Positions 2,988 through 32,715 of a stretch of DNA of 32,715 bases are shown in pieces (position 1 is the first letter of the stretch; each line of letters starts with the position of its first letter). The notes under the pieces are model-generated. The model ran no database searches, had not been told where the DNA came from, and was given only the letters and a program-made list of their open reading frames with translations. Source of the DNA: a plasmid; assembly GCF_053078305.1 (NCBI RefSeq), contig NZ_CP166878.1, one strand, 5' to 3'. A program made the translations under genes and the position numbers.

Positions 2988-3000
2988 ACATTTAGCATTA

Positions 3001-3080
3001 TATGCTTATATGCTTATATGCTTATATGCTTATATGCTTATATGCTTATATGCTTATATGCTTATATGCTTATATGCTTA
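3001..3080. repeat. Perfect tandem array, 10 x 8 bp (TATGCTTA)
   Basis: Counted directly: ten uninterrupted TATGCTTA units. Degenerate units flank it (TAGCATTA at 2993-3000 and TATCATTG at 3081-3088). It starts 14 bp after the virB11 stop codon. Confidence 0.95.
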
Positions 3081-3105
3081 TATCATTGTGTTTGTGTGAA
3101 ATATT

Positions 3106-3299
3106 GCTGTAACATCGACGGTCTACGACCACCTACCACCTGAATAGCTGTAGGTTCCGTGCGGTCAGGCTTGGCAGGGGGCTGACGCGGTTCCTGGCGA
3201 CATGAAACTCCCTGGTTAGGGGTATCGGCGCGACCTGGCATCTGTGACTCTATAAAGCCATTTTTCGCGCCTTCCATGCCGCTAAAGCGGCATATTCCA
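3106..3299 (+). repeat. 194-bp dispersed non-coding repeat, copy A
   Basis: It runs from gctgtaacatcgacggtctacgacc to gccgctaaagcggcatattcca. It differs from copy C (18900-19093) at only 3 positions and from copy B (3962-4155) at roughly 20. All three copies are in the same orientation. Confidence 0.9.
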
Positions 3300-3961: not shown

Positions 3962-4155
3962 GCTGTAACATCGACGGTCTACGACCACCTACCAGCCGAG
4001 TGGCTGTCTGTTCCGTGCAAATGGGCTTTGCAGGGGGCTGGCGCGGTTCCTGGCGACCTGAAAGCCCCTGGTTAGGGGTATCGGCGCGACCTGGCATCTG
4101 TGACTCTATGAAACCATTTTTCGCGCCTTCCATGCCGCTAAAGCGGCATATTCCA
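3962..4155 (+). repeat. 194-bp dispersed non-coding repeat, copy B
   Basis: It has the same ends and length as copies A and C. The divergent positions are clustered at about 3994-4046, with a few further downstream. It forms a direct repeat with copy A around ccdAB. Confidence 0.9.
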
Positions 4156-17644: not shown

Positions 17645-17727
17645 TGCAACAACCCCCTGATATCTCTCTTAGAGCTTTTGCGGGGCCAAAGAAGATAATC
17701 AGGGGGTCCAAAGCAGGCTTTTGCCTG
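17645..17727 (-). ncRNA. Predicted CopA/Inc-type antisense RNA controlling repA
   Basis: A minus-strand promoter reads TTGTAT (17761-17756), a 16-nt spacer, then TATAAT (17739-17734). The transcript would form a small hairpin (caggc/gcctg, 17713-17726). It would then form a long bulged hairpin closed by CCCCCTGAT/ATCAGGGGG (17653-17706), followed by the tail UUGUUGCAUU. It lies 55-130 nt upstream of repA, as in IncFII replicons. Confidence 0.55.
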
Positions 17728-17780
17728 TAAAGGATTATAGCAAATGCATTTTTCAATACAAGACTACTGCCCGGCAATAA

Positions 17781-18506
17781 GTGCGGGCGGTGGTGGCTGA
17801 AAAGAACAATTCCTTAATCCCCCGCATATCGCCGTCAGGGGTGGCCAAACAAAGTCCATGCTATAACGTTGTGTCGCGTAAGCGACGCCGTTTCCTCAAT
17901 CGCTGGATTAAATCGCTGGCGACGGTCGCTGGGCGTGTCAAAATCAAAAACGAACTCCGCCGCCGTATCCGGCATAACCGATATTGGGTTAATGAGGCTA
18001 ACAAGTTTGGCATAGAGGCACTTTGCGAACTGATGTTAGCTATCCTGGATGATCTCGATTTACGCTCCTGGGAAACCAGGCATAACCTCGAAACACTGGC
18101 AGAACGTGCCGGACTGGTGACACGCAGTGACGCGGGGCGTAAATCTATTTCCCGTGCCAGTAGGGGATGTGATCGCCTGGTCTGGTTGAATGCGATCATT
18201 ACAGATAAAGCGCCGTTTAACCCCTATGATGCACGGTGTGCCTGTAAACACATTGAAGTAACCGAAGACTTCTTTGCCATACTCGGCATTCCGTTAAAAC
18301 TGGTTTATCGGGAACGTGCCAGGCTGTTAAAGGCAGATCCTAATGAAATGATTTACTCCGGGGATGCCAGACTGATAGCTATCAGAGTCCAGAACTGGAC
18401 ACGGAAAGCGGCAGCCGGATTAGCCCGGATGAAAGCGAAACGCGACGCAGCTCGACAACGCAAAAAAGAATATTACGCTCACCCACCTACCCCTATTCCG
18501 GTCTGA
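17781..18506 (+). CDS. repA: IncFII-family replication initiator RepA
   Basis: ETLAERAGLVTRSDAGRKSISRASRGCDRLVWLNAIIT parallels R100/R1 RepA (TTLAIECGLATESGAGKLSITRATRALTFLSELGLIT, recalled from memory). The C-terminus is basic. The start codon (GTG at 17781) is uncertain. Confidence 0.8.
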   Translation: MRAVVAEKNNSLIPRISPSGVAKQSPCYNVVSRKRRRFLNRWIKSLATVAGRVKIKNELRRRIRHNRYWVNEANKFGIEALCELMLAILDDLDLRSWETRHNLETLAERAGLVTRSDAGRKSISRASRGCDRLVWLNAIITDKAPFNPYDARCACKHIEVTEDFFAILGIPLKLVYRERARLLKADPNEMIYSGDARLIAIRVQNWTRKAAAGLARMKAKRDAARQRKKEYYAHPPTPIPV

Positions 18507-18899: not shown

Positions 18900-19093
18900 G
18901 CTGTAACATCGACGGTCTACGACCACCTACCACCTGAATAGCTGTAGGTTCCGTGCGGTCAGGCTTAGCAGGAGGCTGACGCGGTTCCTGGCGACATGAA
19001 ACTCCCTAGTTAGGGGTATCGGCGCGACCTGGCATCTGTGACTCTATAAAGCCATTTTTCGCGCCTTCCATGCCGCTAAAGCGGCATATTCCA
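18900..19093 (+). repeat. 194-bp dispersed non-coding repeat, copy C
   Basis: It differs from copy A at 3 positions (cttagcaggagg and ccctagtt). One of these creates an in-frame stop in the minus-strand ORF that copies A and B appear to carry. Confidence 0.9.
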
Positions 19094-20221: not shown

Positions 20222-20339
20222 GTAGATAAATGACGTTGCTACGTGGTCTCCCTCTTTTGCTGATTTCACGTAGCACTCTCACTCTGCCGCTACTTCTCGT
20301 TATTCTGAACAGATGATTGAAAAATAAGGAGAATCAAAT

Positions 20340-20374
20340 AATCTCTTGATTTTATAATCCTATGATTATAAGAT
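20340..20374 (+). promoter_or_regulatory. Recurrent promoter/operator cassette, copy 1
   Basis: The box AATCTCTTGATT contains the -35 hexamer TTGATT. A 17-nt spacer and TAAGAT follow. The cassette is homologous to 23918-23952 and to the parA upstream boxes. Confidence 0.5.
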
Positions 20375-20388
20375 TGTTGTGTATGAGT

Positions 20389-21529: not shown

Positions 21530-21622
21530 TGATCGTGGCGCGATTGCCAGCGAGCTAGGGGTTCCGTGGGAATTTCTGCGATAGGGGTTTGAAGCCCAAC
21601 CGTACGAAAACGTACGCTAAGT

Positions 21623-22404: not shown

Positions 22405-22536
22405 TATACAATCACTTGATTCGATAATTATAAAATTAAGTGATTTTATGATTGCATGATTCTATGAGCATGGGATTATTAGAATGTTTGGCAGAGGTAC
22501 TATGTGAACAAAGGGGAGGGGAAAATGCCTAAAGTT
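22405..22536 (+). repeat. Orphan duplicate of the parA promoter/operator and first parA codons
   Basis: This 132 bp aligns without gaps to 24844-24975, with about 10 substitutions. It includes the inverted-repeat operator, the ribosome-binding site and ATG CCT AAA GTT, after which the sequence diverges. Confidence 0.85.
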
Positions 22537-22614
22537 GGAGCAGCGGGAGCGTTCGAACAGAGACTTACGGTTTCGTTCTTTGTGCAGCAGTTGAAACCGT
22601 AATTATTTGTTTTA

Positions 22615-22865
22615 GGGGTTTGAGGCTCAGTGGAACAATAACCGCCGTTAAGCGGTCATTTTAAATAGCCAAAAATCAACCAGCCAATTTACATCGTGAA
22701 TCTGCGTTCTTGGCTATCTGTTTTGGGGGGCCAAGTTGGCTTTACTCATCCTGGCCGTTTGCGGAACAAAAGACGTTGTTGATCTCAACAGATTGATTAA
22801 CCTGTTATTGACCATTCAATTGAACCGCTTAACCGCCTTTTGAGTTCCACTACTCCCCAAACCCC
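22615..22865. mobile_element. Miniature Tn3-derived element (TIME-like), 251 bp, with target-site duplication
   Basis: The 38-bp ends are GGGGTTTGAGGCTCAGTGGAACAATAACCGCCGTTAAG (22615-22652) and, read as reverse complement, GGGGTTTGGGGAGTAGTGGAACTCAAAAGGCGGTTAAG (22828-22865). The first 22 nt resemble the Tn3 inverted repeat as I recall it. An identical 5-bp flank, TTTTA, lies at 22610-22614 and 22866-22870. There is no ORF. Confidence 0.8.
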
Positions 22866-22882
22866 TTTTATGCCAAGTAGAA

Positions 22883-23091
22883 GGGGTTTGAGGGCCAACC
22901 GTACGAAAACGTACGGTAAGAGGAAAATTATCGTCTTAAAAATCGATTAGTAGACAATGCCGTCCGTTAAGTGCCAATTTTCGATTAAAAAGACACCGTT
23001 TTGATGGCGTTTTTCTATGTCCATTATGTTTTGATATATCAGACAGTTACTTCACTAACGTACGTTTTCGTTCCATTGGACTTCAGCCCCC
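22883..23091. mobile_element. Miniature Tn3-derived element carrying res-like sites, 209 bp, with target-site duplication
   Basis: The ends are GGGGTTTGAGGGCCAACCGTACGAAAACGTACGGTAAG (22883-22920) and, read as reverse complement, GGGGGCTGAAGTCCAATGGAACGAAAACGTACGTTAGTG (23053-23091). The 5-bp flank TAGAA lies at 22878-22882 and 23092-23096. The interior has TGTC..GACA-type res-like subsites, for example TGTCCATTATGTTTTGATATATCAGACA at 23018-23045. Confidence 0.8.
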
Positions 23092-23805: not shown

Positions 23806-23917
23806 GACTTTGTTCTCCTTCTGCCATGATAAAAGATCTTGTTTTACATACCATGATAGGCACATGTGCCTGTTTGGTGCAACATGCTTTACAAACATAA
23901 GAATAATAAAAGGATAT

Positions 23918-23952
23918 AATCCCTTGATTTTGTAATCATATGATTATATGAT
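23918..23952 (+). promoter_or_regulatory. Recurrent promoter/operator cassette, copy 2
   Basis: The box AATCCCTTGATT contains the -35 hexamer TTGATT. A 17-nt spacer and TATGAT follow. About 60 bp aligns with 20340-20400. Confidence 0.5.
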
Positions 23953-23985
23953 TGTTTTTGAGCGTGAATTATTCAGGAGGGAGTT

Positions 23986-24843: not shown

Positions 24844-24942
24844 TATACAATCACTTGATTCGATAATCATAAAATCAAGTGATTTTATGATTGCATAATT
24901 TTATGAGTATGAGATTATTAGAATGTTTGGCAGAGGTACTAT
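24844..24942 (+). promoter_or_regulatory. parA promoter/operator region with a 12-bp inverted repeat
   Basis: AATCACTTGATT (24849-24860) and AATCAAGTGATT (24873-24884) are perfect inverted repeats separated by 12 bp. Repeated ATGATT/TATGAG motifs follow. Confidence 0.55.
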
Positions 24943-24963
24943 GTGAACAAAGGGGAGGGGCAA

Positions 24964-25587
24964 ATGCCTAAAGTTATAGCATTTTTAAATGGTAAGGGGG
25001 GGGTGTCTAAGACAACCTCGGCAGTCAATATTGCTACTGCTCTTGCTCGTAAGGGATACAAAGTTGTCGTTGTGGATACCGATCCTCAGGGAAGTGTTAG
25101 TAACTGGTATGATGACAGTAAGTGTGTTTTTGATGTAGCAGAAGCTACGACAGAAAAAGAAATTTACCGTTTGCGGAAGGCGCTTCCTTTGCACGATTTT
25201 ATCATTATTGATGGTGCTGCGGCGATTTCGGCGATATCGGCAGCTGCTGTTATGGTTTCTGATCTTGTCATTATCCCAGTTACTCCTTCGCCGCTTGATT
25301 TTGCTGCATGTGGCGCGATATTGGCAGTGATAGAAGCTCGGCAGGATTTACGCCCGGTGATTGCTCGCTTTTTGATTACTAAAAAAGTACAGCAAACGCA
25401 TATGCTATCTTTGCTGAAAGAATCTATTGCAGAAACAAGCATACCAGCATTAAAAACAGGAACGTCGTACAGGCAGTCATATATAAAGTCTATGCTAGAT
25501 GGTGGTACTATATTTGATACAAAAGATAGTGCTGCTAAAGGTGAAATATCAGTCATTACAGAAGAAATACTTGGACTATTAAAATGA
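24964..25587 (+). CDS. parA: ParA-family partition ATPase (small, type Ib-like)
   Basis: The ORF has the deviant Walker A motif [16 protein letters not shown], followed by [11 protein letters not shown] and IIIDGAAA. The ATG at 24964 has a GGAGGGG ribosome-binding site. The ORF track begins at the GTG at 24943. Confidence 0.9.
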
Positions 25588-25821: not shown

Positions 25822-26313
25822 ATGGAGTATACACCAATAGCGTTAAGTCCAGGAGCTATGTTGCATAAAGGGAAATTCATTGGTTATGTCATGAAGATCA
25901 GATTTTCCGAGTGTTCTGGAGATCATCTTTTTTATTTGAGATATGATATGGTTGTTGAACTTGCAAGAGCATTAGCAAGAAAAACACACCAGATGTATCT
26001 TAAAGGGACTTTTAGTACAGATGAAAGTAGTCAGGCTACGTTAGAAATGGAAAAGGATTATAAGCAGCATGATATTCATTTAACAAGTGATGAAATATCG
26101 TCACCATCTGTAAATAACTTTGTTGCATTGTTAGATTATAATGTAAGGGATGCATCATTATTATTATCACTAATCAAAAATGATAATTCTAAAATTGATA
26201 TTAGTATACCAGAAGCAGCGGTGGAAATATTTACAGGTTATATGATGAATACTGTTATTAAGGCAGGGGGAGAAGCTTTATCTGAAAAACTTATATCAGA
26301 TATTGGAGTTTAA
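25822..26313 (+). CDS. Hypothetical protein (third gene of the par transcription unit)
   Basis: The 163-aa ORF has a GGAGG ribosome-binding site and starts 28 bp after the parG-like gene. I recognise no family. Confidence 0.5.
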   Translation: MEYTPIALSPGAMLHKGKFIGYVMKIRFSECSGDHLFYLRYDMVVELARALARKTHQMYLKGTFSTDESSQATLEMEKDYKQHDIHLTSDEISSPSVNNFVALLDYNVRDASLLLSLIKNDNSKIDISIPEAAVEIFTGYMMNTVIKAGGEALSEKLISDIGV

Positions 26314-26344
26314 TTATTGCTGCCAGGTAAACGCGAACGCTCAG

Positions 26345-26368
26345 AAAAGGGGCTTTTCGCCCCTTTTG
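26345..26368. terminator. Bidirectional terminator hairpin between convergent operons
   Basis: AAAAGGGG-cttttcgc-CCCCTTTT has an A run and a T run on either side. It lies between the par operon (plus strand) and vapD (minus strand). Confidence 0.7.
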
Positions 26369-26458
26369 AACCAAATCTTAAAGGCCACTCGCTTTCCGGT
26401 AGGGGGCAACATCCAGGCTTAACCTTCCGTCCTCCACAACATCAGGCCATGGAGGATT

Positions 26459-26737
26459 TCAACCCTTTATAGACGAAGTGAAGTCAGACCACTGTTCAAT
26501 CCTGAATGCTCTGATATCCCTGACTGAATTTGGGAACCATTCAAGAGCTTTTAATGCGTTCATAGCCTGAAAAAGGTTTGCCATATTTTCATCGCTATTT
26601 GTGTACAGGCTTCCCTGGATTCGCTCAAATCCGTACCTTTTAAGGGTCGAACTTATATCGTTGTAAGCCTGTGACACGCCTTTCGGATGGTGTTTTTCTG
26701 TATCTGCAACGGTTAAATCAAATGATATTGCGTACAT
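26459..26737 (-). CDS. vapD: VapD (Cas2-like endoribonuclease)
   Basis: MYAISFDL...HHPKGVSQAYNDI...GSLYTN...MANLFQAMNALKALEWF..SVRDIRAFRIEQWSDFT closely matches VapD sequences as I recall them. Confidence 0.85.
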   Translation of the reverse strand: MYAISFDLTVADTEKHHPKGVSQAYNDISSTLKRYGFERIQGSLYTNSDENMANLFQAMNALKALEWFPNSVRDIRAFRIEQWSDFTSSIKG

Positions 26738-26740
26738 AAC

Positions 26741-27031
26741 TTACTCTGCATCAGGATCTTGTAATAGTTTTGAAAGTTTGTACAACTCTTTCTCACCTGT
26801 CTGAACCAGTATAATGTTGACAAGAATATCACCATCAGGTAGTTCTTGGGCTGGCTCTCCTACCTCGTAAGGAATACCAAGCAGCCCGAATGTCTTAATC
26901 GTACCTGTTGGAATTTGCACTGTATTCATTGTTTTCGCTCCGATTTCCAGCCTCATCTTATCAGTCATAGCTTTGATAATAGCCTGACTGTCAGGTGACT
27001 GGGCCGCAATTACTTCTTCTAATGTTCTCAT
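26741..27031 (-). CDS. Hypothetical protein in the VapX position
   Basis: The 96-aa ORF ends 3 bp before vapD starts. Its N-terminal 30 aa (RTLEEVIAAQSPDSQAIIKAMTDKMRLEIG) resemble the N-terminus of the upstream XRE protein, but it has no HTH. Confidence 0.55.
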   Translation of the reverse strand: MRTLEEVIAAQSPDSQAIIKAMTDKMRLEIGAKTMNTVQIPTGTIKTFGLLGIPYEVGEPAQELPDGDILVNIILVQTGEKELYKLSKLLQDPDAE

Positions 27032-27049
27032 CTGTTGATGCCCAATTTT

Positions 27050-27349
27050 TTACAGGTGGAAAGCCATACGCTTGCCTGTAGGCAATGTCACGTCCAGGCT
27101 TAACTCGCCGCCCAAAGCTTTTACATAACGTTTAAGCGTCGATATTCTCGGATCGTTGTCAGTTTGCTCCATCCTGGCAACTGATGGTTGTTTTACTCCC
27201 ATCATTGTAGCCAGTTCGGTTTGGGATATGTTCAGTTCATCACGTAAAGCACTAAGTGCGAGCTGAATGCTGGCTTTTTCAACTCGGTCGGCTACGTGCG
27301 CCTGCATTTCAGGACTCTCTTTAGCCAGTAGTTCTCTGTAGGTAGCCAT
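27050..27349 (-). CDS. XRE-family HTH protein (HigA-like antitoxin/regulator)
   Basis: The HTH segment is ISQTELATMMGVKQPSVARMEQ and the C-terminus is KRYVKALGGELSLDV. I prefer the ATG at 27349, which has a GGAGAA ribosome-binding site, over the ORF-track start at 27400. Confidence 0.75.
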   Translation of the reverse strand: MATYRELLAKESPEMQAHVADRVEKASIQLALSALRDELNISQTELATMMGVKQPSVARMEQTDNDPRISTLKRYVKALGGELSLDVTLPTGKRMAFHL

Positions 27350-27720
27350 GTTATTTCTCCAGTTTTGCAAGATGTTCACGGTATTCATTATATACTGCAT
27401 TATAACGAATACACTATAATTTCCAGAAGAACAGGGCTATTTAACATAATGGACGTTATCAGCACCACCGGATCACAGTTCGTTGTCAGATCTGAAAAAT
27501 CCGCTCAAAAGATCATGTTTTCCTGGGCGTTTTTCGTCGTTTTTTATGTTGCTTATTTGTTAATAAAATCTCGTTTCTTGTTTTGGCTGAATTTGGATGT
27601 GAAAGCCTTATATTTGCAAGTTATCCGGTGAAGGGAGGTAGCCGAGACTGAGGATTGATTGTTTTGTACAAGTTCTAATGCATAATGTGTACATATAGTA
27701 GCGTTAGCATAGGGCGTAGT

Positions 27721-28224
27721 ATGCACCAAGAGCAGGATATAGCAGATGCACTTCATGAATCCCTAGCCTATTTCAATCGATATTGTCGCTATTCGCTAAA
27801 AAGGCTTGCTGCGGATTATCAGGAAGAGATTGATAACTACCAGGATGATGTATGGGAGGCTCCGCAGCGCGCTGCGCGGTTAAGTGCAGCGGTAAAAAAC
27901 TATAAAACCTCACGGATGATTGAGTTTATTTTTTATATGGCTATAAAGCTCAATCTTGATTTAACCCCGCTGGTTGTTAAGCGTTTATGTTCTTGTCTTT
28001 TTCAGCGTACTGGTAGCCAGGAGCTTATTGTTGAGATTTTTGGAAAAAAGCAGCGTGTAAATCGTAGTGCTGATAATACAATGGAACGAATCAATGACGT
28101 GACTGAACGTTATCGTAAATCGGCCACAAGACATTGGCGTAAGACATTATCAGATATAGAAAAAGTTAAAAAAGGCTATCAGAAAGAAATACGTGCACGG
28201 AGAAAAAAGAAAAGCGGTAAATGA
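27721..28224 (+). CDS. Hypothetical protein with a basic C-terminus
   Basis: The ORF is 167 aa from the ATG at 27721. The tail is Lys/Arg-rich (KKGYQKEIRARRKKKSGK). I recognise no family. Confidence 0.5.
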   Translation: MHQEQDIADALHESLAYFNRYCRYSLKRLAADYQEEIDNYQDDVWEAPQRAARLSAAVKNYKTSRMIEFIFYMAIKLNLDLTPLVVKRLCSCLFQRTGSQELIVEIFGKKQRVNRSADNTMERINDVTERYRKSATRHWRKTLSDIEKVKKGYQKEIRARRKKKSGK

Positions 28225-28350
28225 AGTGAACTCACTCACTACAAAGGTTGTGGGGGGAGAGTGGATATCTTTTAATCATTAGTGTATCTTTTTTCTGTCT
28301 GCGGGATAGGGAAGGGCAGACTGTAACCTATCATTAACCAATTCTCTGTC

Positions 28351-28385
28351 GAGGCAACGTTACGTTGCCTCTGGCAGCGTAACGT
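28351..28385 (+). promoter_or_regulatory. Conserved leader hairpin, copy 1
   Basis: GAGGCAACG-tta-CGTTGCCTC is followed by TGGCAGCGTAACG. An alternative pairing joins ACGTTACG (28357-28364) with CGTAACGT (28378-28385). It lies about 26 nt upstream of the ATG at 28411. Confidence 0.6.
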
Positions 28386-28410
28386 GATCCTCTTGTTTGA
28401 GGTAAACGTT

Positions 28411-28761
28411 ATGAAAGACAATCAAAACCAATCACTCCAGGTAGGTGACGCAACTATTCGTATTGGTGACATTTTTCATACCCATTGGGGCTATGAGCAA
28501 ACTAATATCGAGTTTTATCAAGTTGTTTCACTACATGGAAAGAAAACAGTAGGGCTTCGGGAGATTGCTAGGGAAGTCGTAGAGCACACCAGTTGGTGTA
28601 GTGCAGAGATTCGCCCTGTTCCTGATAAGTTTATTGATGAAGCCATCCATAAACGCCGGGTTATCGCAAAATGGGGGTCTGTCCTTGTACGGTTCAGTGA
28701 TGTAACCAATGCATGGCGAACTTCACCAGAAGCTTTACACCATTGTTCCTGGGGATACTAA
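28411..28761 (+). CDS. Hypothetical protein
   Basis: The ORF is 116 aa from the ATG at 28411, which has a GAGG ribosome-binding site. I recognise no family. Confidence 0.5.
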   Translation: MKDNQNQSLQVGDATIRIGDIFHTHWGYEQTNIEFYQVVSLHGKKTVGLREIAREVVEHTSWCSAEIRPVPDKFIDEAIHKRRVIAKWGSVLVRFSDVTNAWRTSPEALHHCSWGY

Positions 28762-28884
28762 ACGTTGTGAGAAGGCGCAGTTGCGCCTTCTTCTTTATGC
28801 GTGATAGATTGGTTCTGTCAGATGATGCAGCATCAATTTTGATGTTCTGACGTTTCAGCATCAAAGAACATTCACACAACTGTC

Positions 28885-28917
28885 GAAGCAACGTTACGTT
28901 GCTTCGGCAGCGTAACG
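28885..28917 (+). promoter_or_regulatory. Conserved leader hairpin, copy 2
   Basis: GAAGCAACG-tta-CGTTGCTTC is followed by GGCAGCGTAACG. Relative to copy 1, the stem carries a G-to-A change paired with a C-to-T change. Confidence 0.6.
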
Positions 28918-28943
28918 CAGCTTCTGAATACAGGAGTCTGGTT

Positions 28944-29303
28944 ATGACTAGTGTTATAAACAATTTATCATCGTTAAACCTGATCCCTTGCAGATCTCCA
29001 TTTGATTCTGTAATGGGAGAACGATGCTATCAGTCGATTGTTTCTGTTGATACATTCACTGATTTCATTGTTGAGGCTCAAGCTGATGGTATGCTGAATG
29101 AATGCAATCTTCGCGAAAATGATAGGTATTCTCGATTATTGAGAACATATCTTTTCAGGAGTATGGCAGTTATTCATGCTGTAATTGATCTACGAGCAGG
29201 TATTGTTCATTTGATTGTATACTCGCTCGTGACAAATGAGATTACGGAGTTTGAAGCCGAATATTTCATTTGTCAGATTCGTCAGAATCTAGACCGTTAT
29301 TGA
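28944..29303 (+). CDS. Hypothetical protein
   Basis: The ORF is 119 aa from the ATG at 28944, which has a CAGGAG ribosome-binding site. I recognise no family. Confidence 0.5.
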   Translation: MTSVINNLSSLNLIPCRSPFDSVMGERCYQSIVSVDTFTDFIVEAQADGMLNECNLRENDRYSRLLRTYLFRSMAVIHAVIDLRAGIVHLIVYSLVTNEITEFEAEYFICQIRQNLDRY

Positions 29304-29328
29304 TCTGATTCTGAACTGTAAGGGAATG

Positions 29329-29925
29329 CTATTGCATTCCCTTTTTTTCTATCAGTGTTGAAAGTTTTTCGCTGTATTCTTTTCGATTATGATGTAATTT
29401 TAGCCTAACGTTAGAAAACTTTTTAAGAACAACTCTTCTATTGCTATAGAAGTCCTTTTTTGATATTTCTCCACAAAGATAAAGAATCCGTTGTTGCTTA
29501 ATGATGTTATCTGTAAGGGTGATAAGGGATATCATCATCATAACAACAGGCGATATAAGAACAGGTATTTTTATTTTTTTGTTATCATTATTTATATGGT
29601 TGTATATATCTTTATAATTTGGTATTTCTGAAACAGTTTGTTTTAAGTGTTCGTAATGCGACGAAAACTCATCTTTTTGAATACGGATAATTTCTTCTGC
29701 TTTTGGCAATAATGATTTTGCAACTATATGTTTTATATAGTGCTCTTTGTTTTTATAACGTTTTAGATTGCTTGATGTAAAAAGAATTTCAAGATATTTA
29801 ATTGTATTAATCGCATCGGTAACATGATGCTTGTGAATAAGTTTTTCACTATGTAATTTGTTGTCAATTTCTCCAATAAGAAATTGATCATTTATTCTTA
29901 AATTAAGTTGTTTTCTCTCCATCAT
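29329..29925 (-). CDS. Hypothetical protein with one central transmembrane helix (AT-rich operon, gene 2)
   Basis: The 198-aa ORF has a very Lys/Asn/Ile-rich composition and a single hydrophobic segment (IPVLISPVVMMMISLITL). It has an ATGA overlap with the upstream gene. Confidence 0.6.
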   Translation of the reverse strand: MMERKQLNLRINDQFLIGEIDNKLHSEKLIHKHHVTDAINTIKYLEILFTSSNLKRYKNKEHYIKHIVAKSLLPKAEEIIRIQKDEFSSHYEHLKQTVSEIPNYKDIYNHINNDNKKIKIPVLISPVVMMMISLITLTDNIIKQQRILYLCGEISKKDFYSNRRVVLKKFSNVRLKLHHNRKEYSEKLSTLIEKKGMQ

Positions 29926-30380
29926 ATATACCCACCTTTTTCTTCAACTAGTGTCAGTTTATCAGTCGATGCGATTTTGTTACCACTCATAAAAAACATA
30001 CTGACCCATAAGTACAAATCTGATTCATAGTAAAATCCTTCGTGTTTTTTTAGTTTGCTTAAAGTGCTATAATGTTCATCCTTATTTTTTGCATAATAAA
30101 GTTTGACAATAAGGTAACACTCTTCCTGTGTTCCCTTTGATAAACACCAATCGAATATTCCATCCCATGAGATATTTTCTAAGCTAAAAAAGTTCTGTTT
30201 TCTTAATTTCTGGCGTTGTCTGTTTAAAAGAATGCTTTGTTGAGTATCGTTGTATTGCTGGGCACCAAGAACAGGATCTTCACAGCGAACGCCACGAACA
30301 GGGCGTTTGTCAAATGACAGTTCCCATAGGTTAATATCTGGTATGAACTCGTAATCTTCCGGTTTCGCCAGACGGAACAT
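29922..30380 (-). CDS. Hypothetical protein (AT-rich operon, gene 1)
   Basis: I prefer the ATG at 30380, which has an AAGGA ribosome-binding site, over the ORF-track start at 30449. The product is about 152 aa, soluble, and of no family I recognise. Confidence 0.6.
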   Translation of the reverse strand: MFRLAKPEDYEFIPDINLWELSFDKRPVRGVRCEDPVLGAQQYNDTQQSILLNRQRQKLRKQNFFSLENISWDGIFDWCLSKGTQEECYLIVKLYYAKNKDEHYSTLSKLKKHEGFYYESDLYLWVSMFFMSGNKIASTDKLTLVEEKGGYI

Positions 30381-30460
30381 AACGCTATCCTTTGTCTGTT
30401 GTGTGTTCGGTAGTTCTGGTTTACCGTAAAACAAAAATTTTTTCAACAAAGGTGTTTAAT

Positions 30461-30676
30461 ATGAGCGATAAGATCCAAGAAATCACACAAAAAATTGAGA
30501 AATTGCAGATAAAATTGAGCAAAATTGAAGAGGAAAAAAACAAGATACAATCAAAGCTGGTTAAGTTAGAAGAAGAGAAAAAATCAATACAGCGCAAGCT
30601 GATTCTACAGGAGAAAAGAGAAGAGCTTGAAATGCTTTTAGACAAAGAAAGTTTTGATATTTTATTCAATAAATGA
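30461..30676 (+). CDS. Small coiled-coil protein
   Basis: The ORF is 71 aa from the ATG at 30461. It has heptad-like K/E/L/I repeats (KIEKLQIKLSKIEEEKNKIQSKLVKLEEEKKSIQRKL). It runs divergently from the AT-rich operon. Confidence 0.5.
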   Translation: MSDKIQEITQKIEKLQIKLSKIEEEKNKIQSKLVKLEEEKKSIQRKLILQEKREELEMLLDKESFDILFNK

Positions 30677-30692
30677 GCATGATTTTTGGGAG

Positions 30693-30721
30693 AATTGCCC
30701 TCTGATTATCAGAGGGCAATT
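30693..30721 (+). terminator. Terminator-like hairpin after the coiled-coil gene
   Basis: An 11-bp perfect stem (aattgccctct/agagggcaatt) has a 7-nt loop. The following T run is short. Confidence 0.5.
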
Positions 30722-30942
30722 TGTCATTGGTAGTGCCTATTACCGTTAGTTATGATCACGAAAAACGCGATGATTGTTCATTACAATGCCCTATCGTTAG
30801 ACAGGACATGTGAGCGTTTTATCAACAACGTAAGCAGAATTTTTTGCAGAAATGATCCTGCATCAATACTGAAAATCGTTGTTGTCTTACATGTGTTAAA
30901 CATGATTTTTTAGTCAATTTCATAACAAAATATACCTACGTT

Positions 30943-31883
30943 TTTTTGGGAAGTCCTCTTACTGAACCAACAGAAAGAGGACGAAAAAGAGGAAACATGA
31001 ATGTTTCCTCTGCCATGTTACTACCGTGAATTTTCAGCTACTTATCTGTACTGGTTGCCTCCAGTATTTTCAGATTCATCTACAGACTTCGGCTATATCG
31101 TCTGTAGATTTTTGCGCCTACTCGTTCACTCTCCCACACTCAGGAATGTAATTTCGGTGCCACCCGAAATTTTCCAGAGTGCTTCCCACGTTAGCTGATC
31201 TTGTCGGGATAACCCGCCACTGGCTCAGACAAACTACTAGGCTACGCCTTACCATTTCTGGCTTTCAGGGGGCCGAGATTCCAAAGCACCTCCCTTACTC
31301 ATAATTTGCCGTCAACACCATAGCCAGACACTTAAGTCATGGCTGGTTATCACTTACCCGAATGCGACCTCTTCGGACGCAATTACAGGCTTGAGCTTTA
31401 CAGCGATCTGCAAAGGTTGCCCCTCACAGTACCGACGTTTCCAGGTTTCCCCTCAACGCCCTGACACCTCACGATGCCCTCAGCAGCCCACCTGTCGGGA
31501 ATATGTTGTACCTTCTCAAGCACCCCATATTCGGGATTTTCACCCGTTCAAGATCAACAGGGATCACGTAGTCACCTACGTTCCCGTTTCCGTGTCGCCC
31601 AGTCTCACGCTTTGGCGTGGATTGGGTCGGACAGGGGAGTTTCACCCCCGAACGCCCTTCGTAGCCGTACCAGCCCAATTACAGGCATACGGCTTCGGCA
31701 GTAACTGTTATCAGGGTTGGCAGTCCTGATAACTCACCTTCGTTTGGCAGACGAAGGCTTTTGGCTTTTTTCGTCTTTCGACTTCCCAAAAATGCGTCGA
31801 GAGTTGGCAGCTCGCAACGCACGTTTTGTTACGTAAGCGATGCTTGATAGTCCGGCGCCCGAAAGGCTCGCATCGAGCCGGAC
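30943..31883 (-). ncRNA. ORF-less group II intron-like ribozyme with domain order D5-D6-D1-D2-D3
   Basis: All coordinates are plus-strand and the RNA is read on the minus strand.
- Domain V is AGCCGUAUGCCUGUAAUUGGGCUGGUACGGCU (31694-31663). It has the AGC triad, a 2-nt bulge and a 5-bp upper stem, and compares with the consensus GAGCCGUAUGCGAUGAAAGUCGCACGUACGGUUC.
- A domain VI-like hairpin with a GAAA loop and a bulged A (at 31627) spans 31657-31624.
- Downstream lies domain I-like sequence, including GGGUGAAAAUCCCGAA.
- A J2/3-domain III-like motif, UAGUAGUUUGUCUGAG, lies at about 31240-31225.
- The 13-nt termini UUUUUGGGAAGUC (31792-31780) and GACUUCCCAAAAA (30955-30943) are complementary.
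- A promoter-like sequence reads TTGCGC (31918-31913), a 17-nt spacer, then TATTAT (31895-31890).
- No reverse-transcriptase ORF is present. Confidence 0.55.
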
Positions 31884-31984
31884 ATCAGTATAATATTTAA
31901 CCTGTAAGCGCAGCGCAAGGAATCTCTTTATAAGGTATTCCCATATGTTGATTTCTTTTATGTAGCGGTTACTACATAGCTTTT

Positions 31985-32689
31985 ATGAGGATTTCGATGA
32001 TTTACCGTTTTAAAACCGATTTTATGCGTCAGATAGCCATGCTGTTTTCGCTGGGATATACAAGGTGGTTTGGTGGCGAAATTCCTCTAAACCCTCACTA
32101 TAAATTCGTGTCACTAAAAGCACGTTTTGATGAACTCTACGCTATCAATGCAACAGCACAACAACGTTTCAGGAGAAGAGAAAAAGGAGTAGCAAACTGC
32201 AAATTTCTTGTCTGGTTTGATGAAAAAAATGCAACTCTTTTATGGGTGTTACTTGCAACAGAAGGGGATGTATACAATGAAGAGAAATTTTATGATGGTA
32301 TGAATAAAAAAACTCGTATTTCTGTTTCAGGTTATGAACTAAAAACAGTTCCACATCGAGGTAGAAAACCTAGCGTTTCATGGGCTATGAAGAAAGAAAC
32401 TTATGAAAAGTGGCATGCGGATATAAAGAAGTCGATAAGAACAAGAAATGATGAGAATATAGAAAAATTATGGTATTCACTCAGGAGGGTGGCAGGGTTT
32501 AGTGAGTTACGTAGACAGGTATTTAAGTTACAGAGATATGCAATGACAGAGTGGAAACGCTCCAGAAGAGGTGAATATCCTTATGAGAAGATTTTTGTTG
32601 GATGGTTAGGACGATTTAAACAAAGTGAAACCATCACAGATGAAGAGCTTTTGTTAATATCGAAGTCAAAAAAAGCTGATATCTTTTAG
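31985..32689 (+). CDS. Hypothetical basic protein
   Basis: The 234-aa ORF contains several early Met codons, so the start is uncertain. It is divergent from the ribozyme-like locus. I recognise no family. Confidence 0.5.
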   Translation: MRISMIYRFKTDFMRQIAMLFSLGYTRWFGGEIPLNPHYKFVSLKARFDELYAINATAQQRFRRREKGVANCKFLVWFDEKNATLLWVLLATEGDVYNEEKFYDGMNKKTRISVSGYELKTVPHRGRKPSVSWAMKKETYEKWHADIKKSIRTRNDENIEKLWYSLRRVAGFSELRRQVFKLQRYAMTEWKRSRRGEYPYEKIFVGWLGRFKQSETITDEELLLISKSKKADIF

Positions 32690-32715
32690 TTTTATCAACA
32701 TAGCGTGAGGTGCTT

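Follow-up and report, generated by a model that had tools for sequence, protein, structure and literature searches.

Two consecutive plasmid genes, gene B (28411–28761, + strand) and gene C (28944–29303, + strand), are each preceded by a copy of the same structured leader of about 125–135 nucleotides (nt), located at 28293–28413 and 28813–28946 on the + strand. Both lie in the stretch of DNA analysed here, referred to as the window, which comprises 32,715 nt of contig NZ_CP166878.1 (assembly GCF_053078305.1). The element is very likely a messenger RNA (mRNA) leader that masks the start of translation and can take up a functional alternative fold; it probably acts in cis to control translation of the gene behind it, with a repeated segment as its expression platform. 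In one fold (OFF), a first hairpin, HP1, is followed by a second, HP2, which hides the Shine–Dalgarno (SD) sequence and the AUG; the other fold (ALT) is incompatible with both hairpins and leaves the AUG free. Compensatory evolution has kept both of these exclusive folds. HP1 carries in its 5′ half a decoy of the initiation region, which is locked by the 3′ arm of the same hairpin.

The repeat is confirmed in the window. The 15-mer GCAACGTTACGTTGC occurs exactly twice on the + strand (28354–28368 and 28888–28902) against a chance expectation of 0.08, a count reached in 0 of 100 shuffles. The repeat itself covers 28346–28385 and 28880–28918, each copy ending 33 nt before its ATG (28411 and 28944), and thus bears out the roughly 40 bp of conservation that an earlier sequence-only reading had described upstream of these genes. 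That reading had also correctly seen a compensatory double change, G/A with C/T, at 28353/28369 versus 28887/28903; a further difference between the copies is one extra, bulged U at 28372 before gene B. The stem it described as 9 bp is real, but is 14 bp long, since CUGUC/GGCAG extends it and includes a U·G pair possible on the + strand only. The alternative pairing of the 3′ arm is likewise real but larger than the 8 bp proposed, with a 13-bp core plus GAGG/CCUC. Another 55–65 nt or so of repeat lies upstream and had been missed, as had the masked SD and AUG, HP1 as a decoy, the 5′ pseudoknot, the linker, and the pairing of a conserved GCGUAACG segment with the start-codon region in both copies. 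When the 75–76 nt before each ATG are folded as RNA, they reach −36.0 and −37.9 kcal/mol (z = −7.8 and −7.7; 0 of 200 shuffles).

Diverged copies extend the family beyond the window: 17–19 have been recovered from nine plasmid lineages, 17 of them as full-length leaders. They precede three unrelated gene families, namely gene B, gene C, and a third gene behind two “A-type” leaders. A Salmonella/Proteus plasmid family has the B-then-C order with the same leader before both genes (identity to the window 59.5% for B and 42% for C). Seven more B homologues (57–70% identical) point to loci L010–L018, where the leader stands before B and C in all cases, and a covariance model built from the diverged copies adds the two A-type leaders, in L010 and L018, before the unrelated third gene. 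A-type leaders retain HP1 but with an unrelated complementary lower stem (GCUAUUYGC/GCGAAUAGC).

Searches on a wider scale return little else. The leader finds only two plasmid families by BLAST against PLSDB, the 1.8-kb region has no match among phages, and a pattern scan of genome contigs recovers the Salmonella/Proteus type again and nothing else. Of 19 loci from a metagenome scan, 5 are true and belong to known lineages, while the other 14 have no match to the covariance model and are treated as chance; a viral scan yields no copy. A word-index protein search with gene C gives near-identical proteins only. Run without filters, the covariance model finds no third copy in the window, and it finds none in the IncL, IncX1, and IncI2 loci that carry gene B homologues. 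The leader family is restricted to about nine enterobacterial conjugative plasmid lineages.

The hairpins form the core of the larger leader, whose parts follow in the order 5′-terminal H-type pseudoknot, G-free linker, HP1, and HP2, with a weak sigma70-like −10 hexamer 6 nt upstream. The putative promoter of gene B spans 28262–28290 on the + strand (−35 TGGATA at 28262–28267, 17-nt spacer, −10 TATCTT at 28285–28290; score 8/12). That of gene C spans 28781–28810 on the same strand (−35 TTGCGC at 28781–28786, 18-nt spacer, −10 TAGATT at 28805–28810; score 7/12), its −35 sitting in the terminator hairpin of gene B, within the 3′ arm; TTGCGY occurs at the equivalent position in leaders L10_C and L12_C. 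A TAnnnT hexamer stands exactly 6 nt before stem A of the pseudoknot in 11/17 leaders, which therefore places the pseudoknot at the mRNA 5′ end, the transcription start being predicted from the position of this hexamer.

In the pseudoknot, a second helix (the PK helix) joins the loop of stem A to the sequence after a conserved CUGAAA. The pseudoknot of the B leader (28297–28332, + strand) consists of stem A (28297–28301/28317–28321) and a PK helix of GAUAGG (28305–28310) with CCUAUC (28327–28332); it is visible by covariation, nested minimum-free-energy (MFE) folding being blind to it (z = −0.1). That of the C leader (28817–28862, + strand; aligned row 28813–28949) pairs GUCAG (28817–28821) with CUGAC (28847–28851) as stem A and GAUGC (28824–28828) with GCAUC (28858–28862) as the PK helix, and its loop holds an extra hairpin (28831–28836 with 28839–28844). 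Behind the pseudoknot comes the linker, which is AUUAACCAAUUCU in the B leader (28333–28345, + strand; G-free, single-stranded, mean unpaired probability 0.76) and AAAGAACAUUCACACAA in the C leader (28863–28879, + strand; 1 G, unpaired probability 0.79). Across the 17 leaders, linkers measure 13–19 nt, contain 3 G in 280 nt, and have mean unpaired probabilities mostly of 0.6–0.95. The pseudoknot module also occurs by itself: in L015 (4305–4392, − strand), stem A, CUGAAA, and matching PK strands are followed by a different downstream sequence, which suggests that the 5′ module is portable.

HP1, the “lock”, occupies 28346–28377 (+ strand) in the B leader, where a 5′ arm (28346–28359) and a 3′ arm (28363–28377, bulged U at 28372) form 14 bp around the loop UUA (28360–28362). 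In the C leader it occupies 28880–28910 (+ strand), with 13–14 bp, no bulge, and the same loop UUA at 28894–28896. Its 5′ half (GAGGCAACGUUACG) closely repeats the true initiation region (GAGGUAAACGUUAUG). HP2, the “mask”, has a masking strand made of CGUARCGU plus an anti-SD sequence, the partners of which are the SD and the AUG. In the B leader (28378–28413, + strand), CGUAACGU (28378–28385) pairs with ACGUUAUG (28406–28413, including the start codon at 28411–28413) and the anti-SD CCUC (28389–28392) with the SD GAGG (28399–28402); alone, this hairpin has −16.3 kcal/mol (z = −5.7). In the C leader (28911–28946, + strand), CGUAAC (28911–28916) pairs with GUUAUG (28941–28946) and CAGCUUCUG (28918–28926) with CAGGAG.CUG (28931–28940, containing the SD), the start codon lies at 28944–28946, and the hairpin alone has −16.2 kcal/mol (z = −5.9). 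The ribosome-binding site is found about 65 nt downstream of the linker, and in most leaders the probability that the stretch from SD to AUG is unpaired amounts to 0.07–0.25.

ALT is built from segments of both hairpins: the decoy SD pairs with the anti-SD, and the rest of the decoy together with the HP1 apex pairs with the masking strand. In the B leader it covers 28351–28392 (+ strand), with a 13-bp core (28357–28369/28373–28385) and an outer helix of GAGG (28351–28354) with CCUC (28389–28392), and reaches −25.7 kcal/mol (z = −6.6). In the C leader it covers 28885–28924 (+ strand), with GAAGC (28885–28889) paired to GCUUC (28920–28924) and a core of 28892–28902/28907–28917, and reaches −25.2 kcal/mol (z = −6.8). 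The 5′ strand of HP2 repeats the 3′ arm of HP1, and the two change jointly among leaders (GCCUC, GCUUC, and GCUAC).

Computed energies usually make OFF (HP1 plus HP2) the minimum-energy fold. Opening the start region, measured as OFF versus the best fold with a free start, costs 3.8–17.4 kcal/mol, and 8.9 and 12.5 kcal/mol in the window copies. Among full-length leaders, ALT is the MFE in L10_C and L11_C. It becomes the best computed fold once the start region can no longer pair, as under a ribosome that covers it, and is the MFE in 15/18 leaders truncated before the SD. Barriers, estimated by direct-path heuristics and to be taken as upper bounds, are 16–23 kcal/mol from HP1 to ALT and about 12–14 kcal/mol from ALT to OFF. 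Given the high barrier out of HP1 and the fact that HP1 is transcribed first, the default state is OFF, spontaneous switching is implausible, and a trigger is needed. Sequential alternative folds that decide access to a start site are familiar from kinetic-trap or metastable leaders such as the MS2 maturation gene and hok mRNA, in which the long-lived state differs from the nascent one. There the nascent RNA is active (MS2) or protected (hok), whereas in the plasmid leaders the first-formed hairpin favours OFF.

Covariation supports all four helices of the leader. Alignment A2, made by MAFFT from sequence without fitting to structure, contains 11 leaders; over the four helices (stem A, PK helix, HP1, and the HP2 outer helix), 97.5% of its cells are paired and 14 pairs have changed on both sides, 0 of 500 shuffles matching either the pairing or the covariation score, and controls in which one partner is slid by 1–3 columns fall to 26–45% paired. 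With 17 leaders aligned by fitting to the covariance model, 98.0% of cells are paired (0 of 500 shuffles). Since the sequences are few and related, the shuffle statistics overstate independence, which weakens the case, and all these figures express consistency rather than formal probabilities. Stem A is 100% paired with 3/5 pairs changed on both sides, the PK helix 95–97% with 5/6, HP1 97–98% with compensatory changes, and the HP2 outer helix 97–98% with A-U/G-C/G·U exchanges. The search of further copies for covariation that the sequence-only reading had proposed thus found it, and these independent diverged copies support what that reading had suggested, a structural role with two mutually exclusive hairpins working as an RNA switch.

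The same holds for ALT, which is 93.9% paired with 3 pairs changed on both sides (0 of 500 shuffles for the covariation score); its 13-bp version is 96.7% paired versus at most 50% in slid controls. Three HP1 loop bases that have no partner in OFF covary with the mask, one position showing CG in 5 leaders, UA in 4, and UG in 2. Other pairings and motifs were considered and dropped. Neither long-range pairing of the HP1 arms with the stem A strands (in A2) nor pairing of the PK 5′ strand with the motif before HP1 shows covariation, and a full pseudoknot joining the HP1 loop to the mask is sterically impossible because its connecting loops would have zero length across an 11-bp stem. A sigma-54 promoter read from GGCAAC...TTGC has a spacing two bases too long. 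An internal promoter read from the conserved CTGAAA and TATCAA fails as well: TATCAA has no −7 T, neither motif occurs in the window copies, and the CCCAUC-type bases between them covary as RNA.

The strand in which the fold operates can be read from its wobble pairs. Over the four helices there are 35 G·U versus 5 A·C cells, which assigns the fold to the mRNA-sense strand, as the complementary strand would carry many mismatches. In addition, the SD and AUG of three unrelated genes are drawn into the pairing, an arrangement that is sensible only in mRNA.

A static leader would account for part of these observations, with HP1 and the pseudoknot stabilizing the 5′ region of the mRNA, HP2 serving as a fixed damper, and the complementarity of apex and mask arising as a by-product of matching the AUG region. 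OFF being the MFE in most leaders, the high barrier out of HP1, the absence of a trigger from the searches made, and the IncL, IncX1, and IncI2 homologues of gene B, which have a plain 5′-terminal hairpin after a good sigma70 promoter, all fit it. It is nevertheless rather unlikely, as the mask covaries with HP1 loop bases that a static fold would leave unpaired, the anti-SD copy in HP2 follows the changes of the HP1 3′ arm through GCCUC, GCUUC, and GCUAC, ALT is the MFE in the two full-length leaders and 15 leaders without a start region mentioned above, and a fixed damper requires neither decoy nor lock. Transcription attenuation, with ALT and a U-rich tract as intrinsic terminator and HP1 as anti-terminator, is less probable still. 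A U-rich stretch does lie directly 3′ of ALT in B-type leaders (UUGUUU at 28393–28398 in the window, U5 in L010), and the eight U after ALT of the B leader in L014 (~2590–2600) and L016 (~2677–2687) resemble a strong intrinsic terminator; yet in C-type leaders, which conserve every helix, ALT is never followed by a U tract (UGAAUACA in the window), and the terminator scan flagged nothing at ALT. HP1 also precedes the possible terminator, so that read-through would always be the default, and both states would be OFF. An enhancer that binds ribosomal protein S1 would explain the U-rich loop immediately 5′ of the SD equally well.

Two readings at the DNA level, both raised in simpler form by the sequence-only reading, are highly improbable. 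One takes the repeat as a double-stranded operator, a 21-bp palindrome bound by a dimeric plasmid repressor that would turn both genes off after establishment. The near-perfect palindrome ahead of two genes, a helix-turn-helix (HTH) gene nearby (27050–27400), and the palindromes that homologous IncX1 and IncI2 genes do carry between −35 and −10 speak for it. In the leaders, however, the palindrome lies 55–90 nt downstream of the −10 hexamer and not over the promoter, and it is pairing that is conserved: the stem letters vary freely by compensatory substitution, half-sites read GAGGC, GAAGC, or GUAGC, and the lower stem of A-type leaders is wholly different. Strand-specific G·U wobbles likewise tell against an operator, as does the extension of pairing into the SD and AUG of genes that are unrelated. 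The other reading is a hairpin in transferred single-stranded DNA, a promoter or priming signal of the Frpo/ssi type used in conjugative entry. The neighbourhood is of the establishment type, relatives carrying ArdC, hok, and toxin–antitoxin genes near a coupling-protein gene, and the leaders share with Frpo/ssi leading-region promoters the repetition of structured elements before consecutive establishment genes (PMC11541004). In Frpo, however, −35 and −10 are reconstituted within a long DNA hairpin on the transferred strand (PMC11541004), whereas in DNA folds of the template strand both putative promoters (28262–28290 and that of gene C) stay unpaired and no long hairpin of this type forms. 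Wobble asymmetry assigns the fold to the non-template strand, and pairing with SD and AUG would be meaningless in DNA.

Under the preferred reading, a translational switch in the mRNA leader, something must open HP1. No upstream open reading frame (uORF) reaching HP1 exists in either window copy, the promoter scan gives no promoter-like site on the opposite strand, and complementary 10-mers elsewhere in the plasmid are at chance level (12 and 8 found versus about 8 expected by our own estimate). These negative results, together with a layout resembling tisB mRNA, led to the tentative proposal that the trigger might be a 30S subunit with S1 standing by at the pseudoknot and linker. In tisB mRNA, where the ribosome-binding site is distant and stably sequestered, a 5′ pseudoknot and a nearby unstructured region serve it as an S1/30S standby site, with S1 as the unwindase (PMC7708055). 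By analogy, the parked 30S/S1 would unzip HP1 from its 5′ side; ALT would then snap closed and capture the mask; SD and AUG would stay open through several rounds of initiation; and the RNA would finally relax to OFF across the barrier of about 12–14 kcal/mol.

Several points weigh against this scheme. The leader is described here from its sequence and computed folds, the standby step, itself doubtful, draws on architectural analogy, and the promoters are weak matches (7–8/12), neither of which the promoter scan called. HP1 must form first co-transcriptionally, and the barriers, even as upper bounds, argue that ALT is never reached unaided. ALT is also weak in some leaders: L12_B shows a gap of 14–17 kcal/mol, and A-type leaders keep HP1 as their best fold.

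The presence of one leader on two or three unrelated small genes would make these a single post-transcriptional regulon in the establishment region. The leader might then, with the same reserve as for the standby step, represent an undescribed class of modular translational latch, in which a pseudoknot standby platform and a locked decoy convert one unwinding event into a long-lived translatable state, and which has been copied onto several unrelated establishment genes that fire together, plausibly as a burst after entry.

In relatives, a uORF of 19–33 codons does start from an AUG or GUG in the PK 5′ strand. It is present in L010 (4416–4543), L012 (4444–4571), L014 (2493–2623 and 3028–3157), L015 (438–565), L016 (2580–2710), and the Salmonella-type leaders in L007, and absent from both window copies. 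It traverses HP1, and its stop codon lies either in the mask (within CGUARCG, as UAA/UAG) or at the HP1 foot. No SD precedes it, and in L014 the stretch from linker to HP1 is open in all three frames.

The family is new and has an unusual locked-decoy design, its logic being akin to that of erm-type attenuators, repY/repZ, and tisB standby. With the tisB +42 standby mRNA (PMC7708055; PMC6690012) it shares the 5′-end pseudoknot, the adjoining unstructured stretch, a ribosome-binding site sequestered tens of nt downstream, and the expectation of background-level translation when unaided. There is no sequence homology, however; tisB has an antisense small RNA and 5′ processing, neither known for the plasmid leaders, and no decoy or lock hairpin between standby site and ribosome-binding site, which the plasmid leaders have. 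The leaders' genes encode soluble proteins of 116–119 amino acids (aa), whereas the tisB class encodes small membrane toxins. The erm/cat translational attenuators have the same four segments, with 1:2 plus 3:4 pairing as OFF (SD and AUG in 3:4) versus central pairing as ON, and the same default of OFF as 1:2 forms first. They differ in that a leader peptide with an SD of its own overlaps segment 1, a feature which neither window copy has, and in that segment 1 of the plasmid leaders copies the sequence of the initiation region.

PK-repBA, the repY-repZ leader (Rfam RF01089), is also a plasmid leader in which an upstream hairpin carries, at its top, bases complementary to sequence beside a sequestered ribosome-binding site, and in which this pairing activates translation. 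Its contact is a loop–strand pseudoknot triggered by a leader peptide and blocked by antisense RNA; in the leaders described here, by contrast, HP1 has to open before contact can be made, and neither a uORF nor an antisense RNA is apparent in the window. RF01089 does not match the leaders, Rfam 15 has no match at E ≤ 1 in 26000–32715, and the literature searched does not contain the motif in a plasmid or RNA-leader context. RF01089 does provide the only gathering-score Rfam match in the window, at 17651–17778 (+ strand; 86 bits), just upstream of the RepA gene (17781–18506), so that the plasmid has an I-complex-type replicon under leader-pseudoknot control.

Genes of the establishment (leading) region decide the survival of an incoming conjugative plasmid, and the literature searched accounts for their control through single-strand promoters and transcriptional repressors. 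The leader would add control at the RNA level, exerted by one structured element common to unrelated genes and with evolutionary support for two exclusive folds; its decoy-and-lock layout is unlike every family compared, and it may carry the 5′-pseudoknot standby principle from a chromosomal toxin mRNA to plasmid genes. As an element of about 130 nt with natural compensatory variants and clear mutational predictions, it is also well suited to the study of how ribosomes open distant structured starts. Its reach is limited to few plasmid lineages, and the regulated proteins have no assigned function.

Gene B encodes 116 aa and is followed by a terminator-like hairpin at 28770–28791 (+ strand; 9 bp with a U-rich tail), which was read from the sequence and not flagged by the terminator scan. 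Gene C encodes 119 aa and has its terminator at 29320–29343. The two proteins are not homologous to each other; neither has a match in Pfam or NCBIfam, and the A-type protein has none in Pfam. An AlphaFold model of B is all-beta with a pLDDT (predicted local distance difference test) of 89 and has no fold match in the PDB. Gene C occurs in only 19 plasmid records, and homologues of gene B in 2,830, in establishment regions of IncL, IncX1, and IncI2 plasmids. At these loci, namely L002 2890–2995 (IncL, pOXA-48-like), L003 2550–2645 (IncX1), and L004 2880–3000 (IncI2), a good sigma70 promoter is followed by a 5′-terminal hairpin (C)GAAAGG..CYUUUC(G) with a G·U pair, and the IncX1 and IncI2 loci carry a palindrome between −35 and −10; the leader is different and the theme similar.

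The plasmid is of an E. coli type of about 30 kb, with 10 PLSDB records that share 99% identity or more across the 1.8-kb region searched, and encodes a VirB-like transfer system. MOB-suite classes these plasmids as “non-mobilizable” despite a full type IV secretion system, so an unrecognized relaxase and origin of transfer (oriT) may lie in 30700–32689/1–1866. This region holds about 1.3 kb without a convincing open reading frame (30700–31980), an unannotated frame of 234 aa (31985–32689), and a weak TraD-like coupling-protein gene (1–1866). Just upstream of the studied leaders, three genes at 26459–27400 (− strand) comprise an XRE-type HTH gene and two annotated as DUF5397 and “virulence factor” in the near-identical plasmid pEc631_3. 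The latter protein looks VapD/Cas2-like by eye, and the cluster may be a toxin–antitoxin-like module.

Further repeats are scattered over the window. A perfect tandem array of an 8-bp unit (TTATATGC, 10.8 copies) lies at 2998–3083, between a VirB11-like gene and a ccdAB-like region. A 194-nt direct repeat is present three times (91–98% identity), at 3106–3299 and 3962–4155 near ccdAB and at 18900–19093 after the replication gene. AT-rich iteron-like families (ATGATT-type units; a 138-nt repeat with 93% identity) occupy 20338–20378, 22405–22542, 23916–23956, and 24844–24981, and the annotation of pEc631_3, and this only, suggests their placement near partition and replication genes. The partition/maintenance region also contains three copies of a 39-nt repeat (AGGGGTTTGA..CGTACGAAAACGTACG..TAAG) with its own hairpin, at 21583–21621, 22614–22652, and 22882–22920.

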